A DNA stretch of 64,000 nucleotides, taken from the sequence record PQ671645.1. One strand, 5' to 3'. Numbering within the stretch: the first letter of the stretch is position 1; each line of letters opens with the position of its first letter. This DNA comes from Escherichia phage DCP548. The translations under genes and the position numbers were made by a program. Shown one piece after another: positions 2,184-63,473 of the stretch. The notes under the pieces are model-generated. The model worked only from the letters and a program-made list of their open reading frames with translations, was not told the DNA's origin and did no database searches.

Positions 2184-3145
2184 TGTACTCTTTAGAAGAA
2201 TTTAATAACCAAGCTATAAATGCAGATTTCCAACGAAACAATATGTTTAGTTGTGTATTTGCTACTACACCATCAACCAAATCGTCTTCACTAATTTCGT
2301 CAATTGGTAGTTTTGCTTATAATAACTTAGGGTTGGATTCAGATTGGCTAGGATTGTCTCAAGGTGATATCAATCAGGGCGTAACAACCCTGATTACAGC
2401 AGGAACACAGAAATTAATTCGAAAATCAGGTATAAGTAAATATCTGATTGGAGCAATGAGTCAACGTACGGTACAAAGCTTGTTAGGTGAGTTCACAGTA
2501 GGAGCTTATCTGATAGACTTCTTCAATATGGCATATAATAATACAGGTTTAATGATTTATTCTGTAAAAATGCCTGAGAACCGATTATCGTATGAAACGG
2601 ATTTCAACTATAACTCCCCGAACATCCGAATTACCGGTCGTGAAATGGACCCGTTAGTAATAAGCTTTAGAATGGATTCTGAAGCATCTAACTTTAGAGC
2701 AATGCAAGACTGGGTAAACTCAGTCCAAGACCCTGTAACAGGTCTTCGTGCTTTACCACAAGACGTCGAAGCAGATATTCAGGTTAATTTACATGCACGA
2801 AATGGTTTACCACATACCGCTGTCATGTTCACTGGATGTATTCCTGTTAGTGTCTCTTCTCCTGAGTTAACGTATGATGGTGATAATCAGATAACAGTTT
2901 TTGACGTAACATTTGCTTATCGCGTTATGCAATCAGGTGCTGTAAATAGACAGGCTGCTTTAGAATGGCTGGAATCAGGACTTATTAGTAGTGTTTCAGG
3001 AATGTTTGGAAATAATCAGAATGATTCTGGACTAGGAAGTGCAGTATCAAGACTTTCTAGATTAGGTGGGACTGCTGGTGGTGTGTCTAATATAAACACA
3101 TTGACAGGTGTTGTGAATTCTGCGTCAAGAGTTTTAGGACTATAA
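2183..3145 (+). CDS. 54: Baseplate tail tube initiator gp54
   Basis: 320 aa, same length as T4 gp54; start overlaps the gp48 stop; followed by a hairpin at 3151-3169. Confidence 0.7.
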   Translation: MYSLEEFNNQAINADFQRNNMFSCVFATTPSTKSSSLISSIGSFAYNNLGLDSDWLGLSQGDINQGVTTLITAGTQKLIRKSGISKYLIGAMSQRTVQSLLGEFTVGAYLIDFFNMAYNNTGLMIYSVKMPENRLSYETDFNYNSPNIRITGREMDPLVISFRMDSEASNFRAMQDWVNSVQDPVTGLRALPQDVEADIQVNLHARNGLPHTAVMFTGCIPVSVSSPELTYDGDNQITVFDVTFAYRVMQSGAVNRQAALEWLESGLISSVSGMFGNNQNDSGLGSAVSRLSRLGGTAGGVSNINTLTGVVNSASRVLGL

Positions 3146-47295: not shown

Positions 47296-49509
47296 TTATT
47301 TGGCCGCTTCCACGGCCTTCATGAATTTAACGATTTGAGCGACCTGTTCTTTGGAAAGAGTACCACGTCGTCCCATGTATTCTGACACAATATGATAATT
47401 GGTTTCGAATTCAATAACCATTTTATCATCATTATCGTAAGCATTATCTTTAAGCTTATCGAAAATTTTAGCACACAATTCTAACTTCTTATTCAGGTCT
47501 GTATTAGTAGCACCTGCGAATCGATTCCATCCCCAACGATTATTTACTGTTGAGAGTTTTGCAAAATCTTTACTGATTTCTTTGTTTTTAGAGCTAAAAT
47601 ACTTACTAAGGAAGTTAAGCTCTTCATTACGAGTAATATGATTCAAATAAGGCTGTGCTCTACGACTTGGTGATACATACTCATCATAATCCACTTTATC
47701 GATTAGCGTAATATAGTCATTAATTGATTTTTCGAACAAGCATTCTACTTCACCAAGTTTACGAACTTTCTTAGCAATCTGTGGACGAACTACAGTGAAC
47801 TCTTTAATACCTGACAAATCAGCAATACGGGTCAAGAAATTGGAGTCATAGTTCAACCAACCTTTATCTGCGTCAAGACATTCGGCATTAGAACGATTAC
47901 GAACTATAGCATAACCTTGGATTTCATCTGCTTCACTTGCCGGAATAAAGAGGTCTTCTGATACCCAAACATCGTTTTCATTCTTAAAGAATCGATGAGC
48001 ACTCGGGGATTTAGGACGAGGCTCATTAGTCCGTTTCCTGACTTCAATCCATGGCTTAACGATTTGTAAAAGCTCTGAAGTCTTGTACATGTTAATGTTG
48101 TCGCCATCAAAGATAACTTTAAGGCGTTCCAGAAGTTTCATTGCATCTTCGTCTGTAGGGTCAACGAATAGTACGCTTTTACCAAAACCGCGTGGAACTT
48201 TACCGGATAATTTAACCTCGTCTTTAGACATTTCAATTGAATTAAGAGCTCGCATTAATGGAACGCGTCCCTTAACATCGTCAATAACAATTTCAACGTT
48301 TTTAATGTTAATGCCAATCAGGCTGTTAATTGAAATGGTTGATGATGAGCTACCACTTTCACGAATACGACGAAGACGAGGGGATTCAACGATATCGTAT
48401 ACGACACCAAGATTACACCACTCAGGTCCCATTTTAAAACGTTTGTACAACTCAGAATAAGTTAGTTGTTCTTTAGAGTATTTCAGTGATTCAATATTAG
48501 ACCCGGCCTTTTCCATGTATTTACGAGCGGTATAACCAAGAGAATCAATTTCGCGGAACACATGTCGTGGGTATTTACAATCAATCCATTTCTTAGAATC
48601 TTCAGCGAACAATTTAGAATCGATTTCTGCAACGCGTTTATGGATATTTGCTACTGTACGTTTATCAAATGACAATGCTTCGCGAGACGGAGCAACATCT
48701 AGTTCACCCATTGGGAATTTAATATAAGCTGTAGTGCATCGTGTCATCATCCATGTTTGTTCTTTAATAACACTTCCGATTGGATATACAATACCGCCAT
48801 AAACAGCCATGATATTACCACGTTCACCCCATGGAGCTTCCTTGGCCAAATATACATCATCAAATTCTGGGAAGTATTTAATATCTTTAACACCACGAAC
48901 TTCTGCAATATCACCTAGAGGACGCATAACATATGCAATTTCGGATGCAAACTTTTCAAAATCTTCCGGGTTAACCGGTACAACTACTTCTACACCCGTA
49001 CGGTCATCAGGACCCATCTTATCTACAAAGGTCGGCTTAATCTGTGGACCTGTGTCATCTTGGTAGATTACGTAACCACGAACTTCACCATTATGATAAG
49101 ACGTAAGGTTAAACGTATCAGTATATGCTAATGGAGCTTTAGAGCCGAGTCCGAATCCACCAATGAAATCGTTACTCGATGTTTTAGTTGAAGCAAAATA
49201 TGAGTTATAAATTCCTGGCTCTTCGTCATTACCACGAATAGTGAAATCACTCATACCAGGTCCAAAATCACGAACTACAAAACGTGGGTCTAAACGACCT
49301 GGAGCCTGAACAATAAACTTATCAGTGCAACCATTAAGAATTTGCCCATCAATACAGTTTGTGATTAATTCACGTACACAAGCCAATTCTTTGTTTGTAT
49401 AAAGGTCATTAGACAAAATCTTATAAACTTTGCTATTGCCTTGAATAGTAAATGCTGTGCTCTTACCGCCTGAACCAATAATCGTTTCTTTAGCCGTTTC
49501 AATAATCAT
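47296..49509 (-). CDS. rIIA: rIIA membrane-associated protein
   Basis: 737 aa (T4 rIIA 725 aa); GHKL ATPase-like N-terminal region; immediately upstream of rIIB. Confidence 0.9.
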   Translation of the reverse strand: MIIETAKETIIGSGGKSTAFTIQGNSKVYKILSNDLYTNKELACVRELITNCIDGQILNGCTDKFIVQAPGRLDPRFVVRDFGPGMSDFTIRGNDEEPGIYNSYFASTKTSSNDFIGGFGLGSKAPLAYTDTFNLTSYHNGEVRGYVIYQDDTGPQIKPTFVDKMGPDDRTGVEVVVPVNPEDFEKFASEIAYVMRPLGDIAEVRGVKDIKYFPEFDDVYLAKEAPWGERGNIMAVYGGIVYPIGSVIKEQTWMMTRCTTAYIKFPMGELDVAPSREALSFDKRTVANIHKRVAEIDSKLFAEDSKKWIDCKYPRHVFREIDSLGYTARKYMEKAGSNIESLKYSKEQLTYSELYKRFKMGPEWCNLGVVYDIVESPRLRRIRESGSSSSTISINSLIGINIKNVEIVIDDVKGRVPLMRALNSIEMSKDEVKLSGKVPRGFGKSVLFVDPTDEDAMKLLERLKVIFDGDNINMYKTSELLQIVKPWIEVRKRTNEPRPKSPSAHRFFKNENDVWVSEDLFIPASEADEIQGYAIVRNRSNAECLDADKGWLNYDSNFLTRIADLSGIKEFTVVRPQIAKKVRKLGEVECLFEKSINDYITLIDKVDYDEYVSPSRRAQPYLNHITRNEELNFLSKYFSSKNKEISKDFAKLSTVNNRWGWNRFAGATNTDLNKKLELCAKIFDKLKDNAYDNDDKMVIEFETNYHIVSEYMGRRGTLSKEQVAQIVKFMKAVEAAK

Positions 49510-49521
49510 ATTTTTCTCTCA

Positions 49522-49722
49522 TCACAAGTTACGTTTAAAAATTTCTGCTACTTCAAGAAGTTCTTCTTTAGTAGCTGTATCGGTTTGTATTTTATATCGA
49601 ATTTCTTTAAAGCGTTCTTTAAAGGACTCTGCTGACTCGATATCAAAAAATCTTTGGATAAGCCGGAATTCCCGGAGTACAGCTTTATCAAAAAGTTCCA
49701 AGTCCACGTTATATGTTCTCAT
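49522..49722 (-). CDS. Hypothetical small protein (rIIA.1 position)
   Basis: 66-aa ORF directly upstream of rIIA. Confidence 0.45.
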   Translation of the reverse strand: MRTYNVDLELFDKAVLREFRLIQRFFDIESAESFKERFKEIRYKIQTDTATKEELLEVAEIFKRNL

Positions 49723-49814
49723 AATATTCTCTTCAGTAGATTCCTAGGGCACTATTACTAAAGACCATATAATCTATCATCTTATGTGTAATAGTGCCTC
49801 AGGCTATTCAGGAT

Positions 49815-50915
49815 TTACGCTGTGAAGATTTTATCCCACATCGCAACAACTGCATCTCGGTTATACTTCTTCCATACTGCTTCAGCACGTTTAACTCGAG
49901 CTTCGTATGTGTCAGTGAATTCTAATACAGCTTTTGTGTAAAGCGCAACTACTTCTTTCTTAGGAGTAGAGGAATCAATTTCTACACGCACAGTATCTGG
50001 GTCGTATTCGAATGTCGCATGAGGATAATCCTTAAAAACTAACTGGATTACAGGGACACCTTTAGAGATGGCTTCAATAGAACTATTCTCTACCGTACCT
50101 GTGTCAGGACACGTATTAATAAGTGCTTTAGCTGTTTTAAGACGTTCCATGATTTCACTGTGTGGAGCATCAATAATAACAGGATATTTAGCTGGTGGCG
50201 CCCATTTGCTTGGGCAGTATCCTGCACCATTTTCGCCTAGTGCTTTAATCGCTTCAAGAGCAACATCAGTACGACGCATTTTAGTGTCATAACGTTGTGC
50301 ACTAATAATCAGATCCGTCGCCGGAAGAACTTCAGGTTTCTCATTCAAACAAATAACCGGATAATCTTCGGCTTCAAACAACGGATTTGCTCGCCAATAA
50401 TCGTAATCAATTTTGTCAGTCAGACCTGAAGTCATATAACAATATTTGCGTTCAAATTCACGGAAGGCTTTAGTAGGAGCATAACTCTTACCACCATTCT
50501 TATGAATTTGAATAGTCTGGTCCCAAATTTGAACAATGCCACGAGATACCGGTTCAAATGGTGTTGCCATAAAATTCTTATGAACTTTAGAGAGACCTGC
50601 GTCTTTAATTGCCTGAACGGTTAGTTTAGTCGGTTCCATAGTAACAACAAAATCGTATTCATGGATGCCGGCTAGTTCAACAATCTTACGAGCCATAGTA
50701 TAACTCATACCTAGACTGAATTTAGTCAGATGACCAACAGGATGGTGTGTAACTTTCCAGTCACCAAACGTGTCGTTATCAAAGCCGATATAATCAATAT
50801 CAGCACCGATGGACACAAGATATTTCAACACGTTCAAATGAACCGCTTCAAGACCACCTTGTACACGTTCTGGGTTAAATGGGACTGCGCGAGATGGGAT
50901 AAACATAACTTTCAT
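49815..50915 (-). CDS. Putative GT-B fold glycosyltransferase (family 4-like)
   Basis: 366 aa; N-terminus MKVMFIPS...GGLEAV typical of the GT-B N-domain; C-domain has TGTVENSSIEAISKGVPVI resembling the GT4 E-x7-E / ...EAMA.G.PVI motif region; lies where T4 has gene 60 and mobA. Confidence 0.45.
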   Translation of the reverse strand: MKVMFIPSRAVPFNPERVQGGLEAVHLNVLKYLVSIGADIDYIGFDNDTFGDWKVTHHPVGHLTKFSLGMSYTMARKIVELAGIHEYDFVVTMEPTKLTVQAIKDAGLSKVHKNFMATPFEPVSRGIVQIWDQTIQIHKNGGKSYAPTKAFREFERKYCYMTSGLTDKIDYDYWRANPLFEAEDYPVICLNEKPEVLPATDLIISAQRYDTKMRRTDVALEAIKALGENGAGYCPSKWAPPAKYPVIIDAPHSEIMERLKTAKALINTCPDTGTVENSSIEAISKGVPVIQLVFKDYPHATFEYDPDTVRVEIDSSTPKKEVVALYTKAVLEFTDTYEARVKRAEAVWKKYNRDAVVAMWDKIFTA

Positions 50916-50930
50916 AATTAAGCCTTATTA

Positions 50931-50959
50931 AAATTAAAATGAAGCTCCCGAAGGAGCTT
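50931..50959 (-). terminator. Terminator-like hairpin after gene 39
   Basis: aagctcc-cgaa-ggagctt (50942-50959) overlapping the gene 39 stop, followed on the minus transcript by a U-rich tract. Confidence 0.45.
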
Positions 50960-52775
50960 AGGACATCCATTCTTTACGAAGTTCTGAATCATCACCCATC
51001 AACATTTCAAAGAGTTCTTTCCAATTTTCAGGAAGTTTAACTACGTCGTACACAGGGTTCTGAATCATTTCACGATATTCTGACTTTTCAAGGGAGCCTA
51101 ATCCCTTGATGTATCGAATACTATGCTTAGGCAGTGTATCTTTAACTTCTTCATACTCAGCTACAGTATAAAACCATTTTTGAGTTTTGCCAATTTGTGC
51201 AATAATTACAGGCGTTTTAACAAAGCGAATACGTCCTTGTTCAAACAATTCAGGCCAATTACTAAAGAAAGCAAGCAAAGCCGGATAGATACTTCCAAGA
51301 CCGTCATGATCGGCATCGGTCATAATTGCAATATTACGATAGTTCGTATTCTCTGCCTTTTCACCAAGAATAAGACCTGTGATAGCACAGATATCGAAGA
51401 GCTCTTTGTTCTTCATCATATCGGCATATGACATACCCCAGCTATTCATCACCTTACCACGTAATGGGAATCCACCGTGTAGTTCACGGTCACGAACATC
51501 AATGAGATAACCAATTGCCGAATCACCTTCTGTTAAAAACAATGTCGTATCTGCATCTTTACCACATTGGTTAGCTTTAATATGCTTATGAACCTTAGCT
51601 TTAGTTGCCTTTTTAGCTGCTTTAGTTTCTGCAGCCTTTTCTGCTGCCAATTTACGAGCTAATGCTGCTTCAACAATAGGCATAATCAAGGCTTCGTTTT
51701 TAAGAAGTGCCTGAGCAATTTTCTTAGCATCTAATTGGATATGATTACGAATATCGCCATACGTTGACGTTAAACGTTCTTTAGTCTGAGAATCAAAACG
51801 CATGTTGCTCATGTCTCTAATAAACATCAACATTGTGAGACATTCTTTAACACGAGCTTTAGTGACTTCAATACCCTTATATTTCTTTTTAATACCCGGC
51901 AAAAGATGTTCGCAGATATCATCCATTACACATTCAACATGATGACCACCATTTTTAGTATGGATGTTATTCACATAAGTTAAATGACGGAAGCCGTCCG
52001 GCGATGTTGTGAATGCTATAGAGACTTTATCATTTTCTTGAATGATGCTATCTTCGCCAAATTGTTTAGCAAATCGTTTAAAATTACCATCAACCTTTTT
52101 ACCATTAAATGTGAACTTGATATCAGGATAAACGACTGCCAATGTTTGAAGTCGGTCTAAAGTAATATCTAAATAAATTTGAGATAAATTATGCTCTTCA
52201 AATGAAGAGAAATCAGGAGTGAAGATTACTTTAGTGCCTTTACCTTTAGATTTCTTAGAAGACCATGATTTGTTTTCCATTCCGTTTGAACAGTTAACAG
52301 TGATTTCATTTTCGCCATCTGACGTGATGCCTGTAAACAACGTAGAGAAGATATTAGTTAAACTACTCCCGACGCCGTTCATACCACCAGTCTTGCGTTC
52401 AGAGTCATCACCAAAGTTACCACCGGCCTTTGGAATAGTCCAGGCCGCTACAGGCCCAGGAATTTGTTCACCTGTTTGGTCGGTAACTAAACCTTGAGGA
52501 ATACCACGCCCGTTATCTTCCACTGAAACTTGATTATTTTTAATTTGCACATCAATTTTATTTGCAAACTTAAATGATGTACGAATAGCTTCATCAACCG
52601 AGTTGTCAATAATCTCATCGATTAATTTAACCAGACCAGGAACATATTCAACTTGTTGATATTTACCAAACAAAAAACGCTCGTGGGCTTCTTTAGCCGA
52701 AGAACCAATATACATACCACTACGTTTCTTAATATGTTCTACATCTGACAATACCTTAATTTCATTTTTAATCAT
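50958..52775 (-). CDS. 39: DNA topoisomerase II large subunit (GyrB-like), uninterrupted gp39+gp60 form
   Basis: 605 aa; N-terminal GHKL ATPase; C-terminal 130 aa (IAIMTDADHDGLGSIYP...KLPENWKELFEMLMGD) match T4 gp60, so the protein is contiguous with no bypass element. Confidence 0.95.
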   Translation of the reverse strand: MIKNEIKVLSDVEHIKKRSGMYIGSSAKEAHERFLFGKYQQVEYVPGLVKLIDEIIDNSVDEAIRTSFKFANKIDVQIKNNQVSVEDNGRGIPQGLVTDQTGEQIPGPVAAWTIPKAGGNFGDDSERKTGGMNGVGSSLTNIFSTLFTGITSDGENEITVNCSNGMENKSWSSKKSKGKGTKVIFTPDFSSFEEHNLSQIYLDITLDRLQTLAVVYPDIKFTFNGKKVDGNFKRFAKQFGEDSIIQENDKVSIAFTTSPDGFRHLTYVNNIHTKNGGHHVECVMDDICEHLLPGIKKKYKGIEVTKARVKECLTMLMFIRDMSNMRFDSQTKERLTSTYGDIRNHIQLDAKKIAQALLKNEALIMPIVEAALARKLAAEKAAETKAAKKATKAKVHKHIKANQCGKDADTTLFLTEGDSAIGYLIDVRDRELHGGFPLRGKVMNSWGMSYADMMKNKELFDICAITGLILGEKAENTNYRNIAIMTDADHDGLGSIYPALLAFFSNWPELFEQGRIRFVKTPVIIAQIGKTQKWFYTVAEYEEVKDTLPKHSIRYIKGLGSLEKSEYREMIQNPVYDVVKLPENWKELFEMLMGDDSELRKEWMS

Positions 52776-52821
52776 GTTGTCTCCTCGTTATGAAGGTATT
52801 CTATCATCCGAAATCTAAAGC

Positions 52822-52838
52822 AAAAAGGGCCGAAGCCC
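52822..52838 (-). terminator. Intrinsic terminator-like hairpin after ORF 52839..53264
   Basis: gggc-cgaa-gccc with aaaaa on the plus side (U5 on the minus transcript). Confidence 0.45.
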
Positions 52839-53264
52839 TTATTTAAATTTAATTTTCTGAAGTGCATCAATTGCAGCCAAACGCCCTTGTTCACTTTTAA
52901 CTGTAATGACCACATCGCCTGATACGATCACCGAACCATCAACAAATTCTATAGAGCCTTTTTTGAAATCGACAGCTGTATCTGGTTCCGGAACTTCTTC
53001 AAAGAATTTAAATTCTGCACCATAAAGCAGAATATCACCTTGCATACTATGAATAGTTCGGCCATAATCGCCTACGGCTTCTACAGCAATAACCGAAACG
53101 CCGTAACCAATCATCTCTTCCACAATAAAATCTTTGGACAATAAAGTAGTATGCAGATTAGTATTAAGACGCTTACCAGTCGTATTAAGAATTCTCAAGA
53201 AATTATCTTCCTGTCCTTTGATAATACGATATTTCTTACCAACTTCAAAACCTTTAAAAGCCAT
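52839..53264 (-). CDS. Hypothetical protein
   Basis: 141-aa ORF followed by a CGAA-loop terminator hairpin at 52827-52838. Confidence 0.45.
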   Translation of the reverse strand: MAFKGFEVGKKYRIIKGQEDNFLRILNTTGKRLNTNLHTTLLSKDFIVEEMIGYGVSVIAVEAVGDYGRTIHSMQGDILLYGAEFKFFEEVPEPDTAVDFKKGSIEFVDGSVIVSGDVVITVKSEQGRLAAIDALQKIKFK

Positions 53265-62774: not shown

Positions 62775-62937
62775 TTGCAACCCAATCAACCATATGTAGA
62801 TGGTCTGATAATTGACTAACATGCTGAAGCTGATTAGATAGGAGCTTACAAATAAGCTCACTGTTATCATTTTTAAATAGCTGGTCGATACGTTTCTTGT
62901 GGGCTTTCTTAAGCTGTCGTTTATTTAAACGAGCCAT
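62764..62937 (-). CDS. Small basic protein (57 aa), not in the ORF track
   Basis: ATG shares one nt with the gene 56 stop (TAATG); hand translation MARLNKRQLKKAHKKRIDQLFKNDNSELICKLLSNQLQHVSQLSDHLHMVDWVANET; its stop overlaps the next ATG. Confidence 0.3.
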   Translation of the reverse strand: MARLNKRQLKKAHKKRIDQLFKNDNSELICKLLSNQLQHVSQLSDHLHMVDWVANET

Positions 62938-63473
62938 TAGTAACCTCGGTCTTGGCGGGAGAAGTTTTCAGCATTCTTCAAGTAATACAGTTTAAAGATT
63001 TCTTCAGCAGAAAGACCCAGACCTTGGAACATGTTCAGGACAAAGTGGAGGATATCAATCATCTCGAATTTAATTTCAAGCTGGTCTTCAGGAGACAGTT
63101 CATCGATACGACGATTTCGATATTCAGCATGTTGCGCCTTCCACGGCTTCCATACAGAGCTAGCTGCTTTTTCACCATTGCTCATACCACCAAGTGAAGT
63201 CAACAGTTCACGGAATTCATCATCAATATAATCTTTCTGATTACGCAGCCAGTCAACAACATCACCAGCAGTAGCCAATTCATCAGGATGTTTGTTATGT
63301 TCAGGCTTGTCATTTGCCAGACGAACCTGTAAAGATTTCTGCATATCAAGCATTACCTGCAGAGGGTCTTTATCTTCGTGAATCAGAGCATTAAAATAAG
63401 CTTCTTCTGCTTTATCAACACCAGAAATAAGTTGTGAACATTCGTTAAAGTGCGCCATTATTTTTCCTTTCAA
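62937..63473 (-). CDS. 56: dCTPase/dUTPase gp56
   Basis: 178 aa (T4 gp56 171 aa); close match (MAHFNEC...LQVMLDMQ...ETAGDVV.W...IDDEFRELLTSLG, C-terminal FKLYYLKN.ENF.RQDRGY). Confidence 0.9.
   Translation of the reverse strand: MKGKIMAHFNECSQLISGVDKAEEAYFNALIHEDKDPLQVMLDMQKSLQVRLANDKPEHNKHPDELATAGDVVDWLRNQKDYIDDEFRELLTSLGGMSNGEKAASSVWKPWKAQHAEYRNRRIDELSPEDQLEIKFEMIDILHFVLNMFQGLGLSAEEIFKLYYLKNAENFSRQDRGY

Follow-up and report, generated by a model that had tools for sequence, protein, structure and literature searches.

A gene encoding a 366-amino-acid GT-B glycosyltransferase was identified between rIIA.1 and gene 39 of Escherichia phage DCP548 (PQ671645.1), in a stretch of 64,000 nucleotides that was analysed as a whole and is referred to below as the window. 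The encoded protein is probably (probability about 0.8) a soluble enzyme that adds a second arabinofuranose to arabinosylated phage DNA. In the proposed pathway, cytosine would be replaced by 5-hydroxycytosine via 5-hydroxy-dCMP, the product of a thymidylate-synthase homologue, and a first transferase of the RB69 gp46:47 type, with its gene some 20 kb distant and beyond the window, would attach alpha-D-arabinofuranose to O5. The window enzyme would then use UDP-arabinofuranose to place a second, beta-linked D-arabinofuranose on O3 of the first sugar after replication, giving beta-D-Araf-(1->3)-alpha-D-Araf-5-hydroxy-dC. This bulkier disaccharide would give the DNA additional protection against host nucleases. 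The beta-(1->3) linkage is presumably made by the window protein itself. Observed directly here were the ORF, the identity of its product to RB69 gp3 and the phage HY126 enzyme, the GT-B fold, synteny and distribution. The gene and its neighbours are as follows.

49815..50915, minus strand: GT-B glycosyltransferase gene, 366 aa; its orthologues are RB69 ORF003c/gp3 and the HY126 glycosyltransferase gene (product in PDB 9IQZ/9IR0)
50923..50926, minus strand: Shine-Dalgarno-like AAGG, 7 nt 5' of the ATG of the ORF, read from the sequence
49522..49722, minus strand: rIIA.1, 66 aa, downstream neighbour of the ORF (ORF list and RB69 comparison)
47296-49509: rIIA, near the ORF beyond rIIA.1 (ORF list)
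50958..52775, minus strand: gene 39, 605 aa, next to the ORF on its upstream side; encodes the topoisomerase II large subunit as an unsplit 39+60 protein

The ORF on the minus strand of the window (49815-50915) starts with ATG and encodes 366 aa, as read from the sequence and the ORF translation. Its N-terminus is MKVMFIPS...GGLEAV, and residues 272-290 of the C-domain are TGTVENSSIEAISKGVPVI. The preliminary description had reported a 366-aa ORF between rIIA.1 and gene 39, and its coordinates and both of the motifs that it quoted were found in place. With full-length homologues at 40-42% identity and about 130 invariant columns, the ORF is far beyond chance. No signal peptide or membrane segment was evident on inspection of the protein sequence. 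The GC content of the ORF is 0.38-0.42 and that of the flanks is not clearly different; base composition thus gives no hint of a recent transfer.

The window protein is identical to RB69 ORF003c/gp3 (NP_861693.1) at 363 of 366 positions, the three substitutions being E16D, T56N and T327I. The RB69 gene occupies the same slot between rIIA.1 and gene 39, has the same length of 366 aa and carries the same flanking hairpin. Over the surrounding 11 kb, the window is 98.2% identical to Escherichia phage ST0 (Mosigvirus), the closest complete genome, which encodes both an orthologue of the window gene and a gp47 homologue. The exact sequence of the window protein is on record solely from one 7.8-kb Logan contig. 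When the window protein was compared by tblastn with 50,697 phage records, the gene family was detected in 211 of them, all Mosigvirus-type or Acinetobacter phages: about 155 were RB69-type Escherichia/Shigella phages at 95% identity or more, and 56 were Acinetobacter phages at about 42%. The profile of PHROG 8302, annotated as 'unknown function', matches residues 1-366 of 366 (E 3.9e-222), and the protein belongs to this family by full-length homology to RB69 gp3 and DLP3 gp76-77. Two of the homologues, Lazarus_073 and Lazarus_072 of Acinetobacter phage Lazarus, show 42% and 40% identity, respectively, to the window protein over the full length and have the invariant motifs in common with it.

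No match to the window protein was found in Pfam (E<=10) or NCBIfam (E<=1). An exhaustive HMMER search of 1.84 billion representatives returned only 16 proteins at E <= 0.001, and a word-indexed search returned five clusters; the family thus stands apart in sequence, and a deep alignment is impossible. In the 253-member cluster at 90% identity that contains the window protein, nearly all of the named members examined are labelled 'hypothetical protein'. Other labels on record are 'ATP-binding protein' and 'GDP-mannose-dependent alpha-(1-2)-phosphatidylinositol mannosyltransferase', and the Acinetobacter homologues are called 'DNA alpha-glucosyltransferase' in some records. The gene, fold, structure and proposed role have all been published already, so the assignment is correct but not new and opens no new question. 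Its practical value lies in annotation and phage engineering, and a correct label would help the databases.

A PDB sequence search, with both the profile and the single sequence, returned one entry pair, 9IQZ/9IR0 (E = 6e-250), released on 2025-07-16. These entries contain the glycosyltransferase of phage HY126, the chain of which is identical to the window protein at about 361 of 366 positions (about 99%), with about five residues differing. Entry 9IQZ is the apo form and 9IR0, according to its title, the UDP complex, which indicates that the HY126 orthologue binds UDP. The window protein has the two Rossmann-like domains and the nucleotide-sugar site in the C-terminal domain that characterize GT-B enzymes. 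The preliminary description had called the gene glycosyltransferase-like, with GT-B hallmarks, and this is borne out by the solved structure of the nearly identical protein and by the literature, which assigns RB69 gp3 as an arabinosyltransferase.

The two-Rossmann fold is common to the window protein and to retaining GT-B enzymes of the GT4 type (PimA, WaaG, WaaB, BshA and sucrose-phosphate synthase), as is the C-domain motif ...E-A-(I/M)-S/A-x-G-x-P-V-I. Identity to these enzymes, however, is only 9-16%, and the published product linkage is beta. The E-x7-E motif of GT4 is not intact. Its second Glu is the invariant E281 (IEAISKGVPVI), whereas the position of the first Glu is occupied by T272; the family-invariant E276 stands in place of this first Glu and produces an E-x4-E spacing. 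The window protein does not reach the gathering threshold of Pfam Glycos_transf_1 (PF00534), and the Acinetobacter relatives give only sub-threshold GT4-conflict matches. A distant relative that aligns to residues 248-352, one of the 16 proteins from the HMMER search, passes PF00534 at 34.6 bits. An AlphaFold model built from six sequences had a pLDDT of 63.9 and was poor over residues 109-188 (pLDDT about 30). The same residues form the densest family-invariant run, including R125, W131, H138, K139, K143, D170, Y173 and W174, and may constitute an N-domain insert, peculiar to the family, that binds the acceptor or DNA.

The nearest structural neighbours in the fold search were GT4 enzymes acting on LPS, lipids and small molecules (PimA, WaaG, WaaB and BshA). 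These neighbours suggest another role, mentioned as an alternative in the preliminary description, in which the acceptor is not DNA but, for example, a virion protein or a glycan or lipid of the host envelope. At only 10-15% identity, however, they are uninformative on the acceptor. The homologues are active on DNA in vitro and their genes are part of a DNA-modification cluster, the distribution of the family fits di- and tri-arabinosyl DNA, and the protein lacks an evident signal peptide or membrane segment. A glycan or virion target is unsupported and is a most improbable reading.

The chemistry of the modified DNA has been described in several studies. Arabinose was found in RB69 DNA by Thomas et al. 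2018 (PMC6024577), and ORF003c was named as the RB69 arabinosyltransferase from HMM, HHpred and Phyre2 evidence for a GT-B fold, its similarity to 1XV5 being detected only at the HHpred level (PMC6024577). Lee et al. 2026 reported that cytosine in RB69 is replaced by 5-hydroxycytosine, not hmC, and that this base bears alpha-D-Araf or beta-D-Araf-(1->3)-alpha-D-Araf, whereas the 5-hydroxycytosine of Acinetobacter phage DLP3 bears an arabinose trisaccharide (PMC13326640). The nucleotide 5-hydroxy-dCMP is made by a flavin-dependent thymidylate-synthase homologue (PMC13326640). The DNA of phage NP, a Mosigvirus of the Durham collection, contains mono- and di-arabinosyl-dC at a ratio of 1:4, or about 80% disaccharide (PMC13390438). 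The preliminary description wrongly assumed a background of T4-type hmC glucosylation; for Mosigvirus DNA the literature gives arabinosylated 5-hydroxycytosine and not glucosyl-hmC (PMC13326640, PMC13390438).

The role of first transferase was proposed for RB69 gp46:47, and that of 'beta-arabinosyltransferase 2' for gp3 (PMC13326640); gp3 has been taken to transfer the second, beta-linked arabinose to DNA that already carries one (PMC13326640, PMC13390438). In the papers examined, among them PMC6024577, PMC13326640 and PMC13390438, no direct assay of RB69 gp3 or of the window protein was found. He et al. 2026, on the Afh pathway of HY126, is cited for a hydroxylase structure and for UDP-arabinose synthesis. 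Mahler et al. 2025, as cited in a T4 paper, reported that deletion of the Bas46 arabinosyltransferase (Aat) confers sensitivity to a defence system.

The 2018 study proposed that ORF003c is the first, base-proximal arabinosyltransferase acting on the hydroxylated cytosine, having chosen it as the best glycosyltransferase candidate by HMM and HHpred, and the label 'putative hmC-arabinosyltransferase' in the BASEL records conforms to this role. That analysis, however, missed gp46:47 owing to a frameshift by which the gene is split in the RB69 record. The first transferase, represented by the N-terminal half of RB69 gp46:47, was detected in 348 phage records, which span Mosigvirus, JS98-like, Klebsiella, Enterobacter, Serratia, Proteus, Edwardsiella, Yersinia, Acinetobacter and Shewanella Thanatos phages, and in every group gp46:47 is syntenic with the 5-hydroxy-dCMP synthase. 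The ORF003c family, in contrast, occurs only in groups reported with di- or tri-arabinosylated DNA. Thanatos, with its mono-arabinosylated DNA, and JS98, which is reported or predicted to be arabinosylated, have a gp46:47 homologue without any member of the ORF003c family. The number of ORF003c-family copies follows the number of sugars, with no copy in phages with mono-arabinosylated DNA (Thanatos), one in those with di-arabinosylated DNA (RB69 and NP) and two in those with tri-arabinosylated DNA (DLP3-type).

In Lazarus, two homologues of the window protein are encoded in tandem, adjoining genes for a ThyA homologue, a kinase, an arabinose-5-phosphate isomerase and an NDP-sugar pyrophosphorylase. 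The order of genes directly before the tandem homologues is thymidylate-kinase-like gene, first-transferase candidate, ThyA homologue, phosphatase, pyrophosphorylase/kinase and arabinose-5-phosphate isomerase. The first-transferase candidate, Lazarus_075, showed no similarity to the window protein. Gene context, distribution and copy number together favour a chain-extending enzyme over the base-proximal transferase of 2018, which is a very unlikely role for the window protein. The addition of a second sugar to modified DNA had been suggested in the preliminary description, and the literature assignment agrees with these three lines of evidence in supporting it.

The homologues in DLP3 provide a further comparison for the chain-extending role. 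The proteins gp77 and gp76 of DLP3 (equivalent to Lazarus_073 and Lazarus_072), named arabinosyltransferases 2/3, use UDP-Araf and act on arabinosylated DNA. Unlike the window gene, they are encoded by tandem paralogues inside the arabinose cluster, away from the junction of rIIA and gene 39, and both are required for the third arabinose in a phage that makes a trisaccharide. When purified gp76 and gp77 are combined with UDP-Araf in vitro, RB69 DNA gains a third arabinose, whereas each protein alone is inactive (PMC13326640). Since these homologues work only as a pair, the lone Mosigvirus copy might need a partner. The window protein would then be a non-autonomous subunit that extends the chain only together with a partner such as gp46:47, or that supplies binding to DNA or to the acceptor in place of catalysis, and residues 118-174, which are highly conserved, family-specific and poorly modelled, could be the interaction or acceptor surface. 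Phage NP, however, reaches its high proportion of disaccharide although Mosigvirus has one family copy, and the nucleotide-binding motif of the C-domain is kept in a protein that was crystallised with UDP. Dependence on a partner is therefore considered unlikely.

A chain-extending arabinosyltransferase at this locus probably sets whether one or two arabinoses are carried per cytosine in Mosigvirus DNA. How sensitive the phage is to restriction, to CRISPR and to type IV systems is in turn influenced by this number (PMC13326640, PMC13390438, PMC13216743).

The arabinose cluster would lie beyond the end of the window. The window corresponds to RB69 up to about 16.5 kb and the RB69 arabinose cluster is located at 24-30.6 kb, which places gene 56 inside the window and the cluster outside it. 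No match to RB69 gp45-gp55 was found in the window, which ends about 8 kb before the RB69 location of the corresponding genes. Gene 56, the dCTPase of which is counted as a pathway member in Table 1 of PMC13326640, is the sole other component of the cytosine-replacement pathway within the window.

62937..63473, minus strand: gene 56 dCTPase (tblastn with RB69 gp56, 98.8% identity)

The glucosyltransferases a-gt and b-gt of T4 are GT-B enzymes like the window protein and likewise glycosylate phage DNA once it has been replicated, with a UDP-sugar as donor. Their acceptor, however, is the hydroxyl of hmC instead of the hydroxyl of a sugar, their donor is UDP-glucose, and the genome positions differ. 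Membership of the window protein in the a-gt/b-gt family was rejected, as no sequence relation was detected by blastp or tblastn (E>3) or by hhalign of the family profile (probability 0.2%). A tblastn search with a-gt and b-gt also returned no match in the window or in RB69 1-50 kb, so the enzyme is not 'extra' to T4-type hmC glucosyltransferases as was initially supposed. In RB69 the a-gt slot (47 to a-gt.2) is empty, and the b-gt slot (uvsX to the gene 42 homologue) holds gp45-47, including the first arabinosyltransferase.

The closest functional analogue is the beta-1,6-glucosyl-alpha-glucose transferase (ba-gt) of T2 and T6, which makes gentiobiosyl-hmC by adding a second sugar to a sugar already carried by DNA. 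Unlike the window enzyme, ba-gt uses glucose on an hmC base and has 280 aa. The ba-gt enzyme appears in Table 1 of Thomas 2018 (PMC6024577).

The junction between rIIA.1 and gene 39 has four different contents in the phages compared. In T4 it holds 60, 60.1 and mobA, in RB69-type phages the present transferase, and in Serratia phage CHI14 two small hypothetical genes. The JS98 junction (NC_010105.1, region coordinates 2437-3024) consists of 588 nt without an annotated gene; two ORFs are present there on the minus strand, one of 107 aa (2423-2746) and one of 53 aa (2821-2982), and both are unrelated to the transferase. The presence of gene 60 and mobA at the T4 junction, as first described, was verified by the T4 order rIIA.1 - 60, 60.1, mobA - 39, and the four contents make the term 'hotspot' a fair one. 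No remnant of the transferase gene or of its hairpin was found at the T4, JS98 and CHI14 junctions, where the sole match was the 3' end of gene 39/60. Over its last 36 nt or so, gene 39 matches the end of T4 gene 60 (T4 2467-2502) at 86%, which confirms that the T4 split and insertion are absent and that the transferase lies downstream of an intact gene. The distance between the transferase gene and the other pathway genes is about 20 kb in Mosigvirus, but in Acinetobacter phages the gene is part of the cluster.

The ORF is bracketed by two hairpins, and a promoter-type motif is present upstream of gene 39.

50942..50959, minus strand: upstream hairpin, separating the end of gene 39 from the start codon of the ORF; its 7-bp stem is closed by a UUCG loop, and CAUUUUAAUU comes after it
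49743..49803, minus strand: downstream hairpin, located after the ORF stop and before rIIA.1 begins, with 16-nt arms and a 29-nt loop containing an inner stem
52798..52824, minus strand: MotA-box-type middle promoter, TTTGCTTTA-N12-TAGAAT, about 25 nt 5' of the gene 39 start (pattern scan, consensus match only)

The arms of the upstream hairpin are at 50942-50948 and 50953-50959, and its stem overlaps the stop codon of gene 39. Its stability is modest (dG -10.5, z -1.8), and it was the only terminator-like site in the local scan. A terminator hairpin of gene 39 had been described at this position; the structure is present with its U-rich run, is only modestly stable and may be terminator-like or attenuating.

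The downstream hairpin has arms at 49743-49758 and 49788-49803 that are 88% complementary. Its RNA fold has an energy of -28.5 kcal/mol (z -5.15), which was equalled by none of 200 shuffles. The 11-bp inverted repeat previously noted at 49748-49798 is exact and extends to these 16-nt arms. The hairpin is kept in RB69, with one non-compensated mismatch, and in Bas46. No U-tract follows the stem, no Rfam match was obtained for 49400-51300 at E<=1, and no second copy of the hairpin arm was found within the window.

Apart from the MotA-box match, 49400-53000 yielded no T4-style promoter motif upstream of the ORF. A sigma-70 scan returned no more sites than in shuffled sequences and none positioned to drive the ORF, and scans for T4 early and late promoter motifs gave no match near it. 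In the simplest reading, the ORF would be transcribed by read-through from the middle promoter of gene 39 across the weak hairpin; gene 39 is the probable source of this transcription. It is doubtful that the gene and its two bracketing hairpins form a self-contained cassette that was moved from the arabinose cluster, the present location of the Acinetobacter-phage homologues, into the variable slot between rIIA.1 and gene 39, with the very stable 3' hairpin and the weak 5' terminator tuning expression and thereby the ratio of mono- to di-arabinose in virion DNA; comparative support for this is confined to near-identical Mosigvirus sequences.

Shigella phage JK45 (MK962757.1) carries an exact tandem duplication at this locus (region coordinates 1307-1606 and 1810-2109, spacing 503 bp). 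The duplication covers the 3' third of the transferase gene and the hairpin spacer, leaving one full copy and one partial copy of 136 aa, and it could be either a real recent event or an assembly artefact. The taxonomy line of JK45 gives Tequatrovirus, yet the region is Mosigvirus-like (99.4%).
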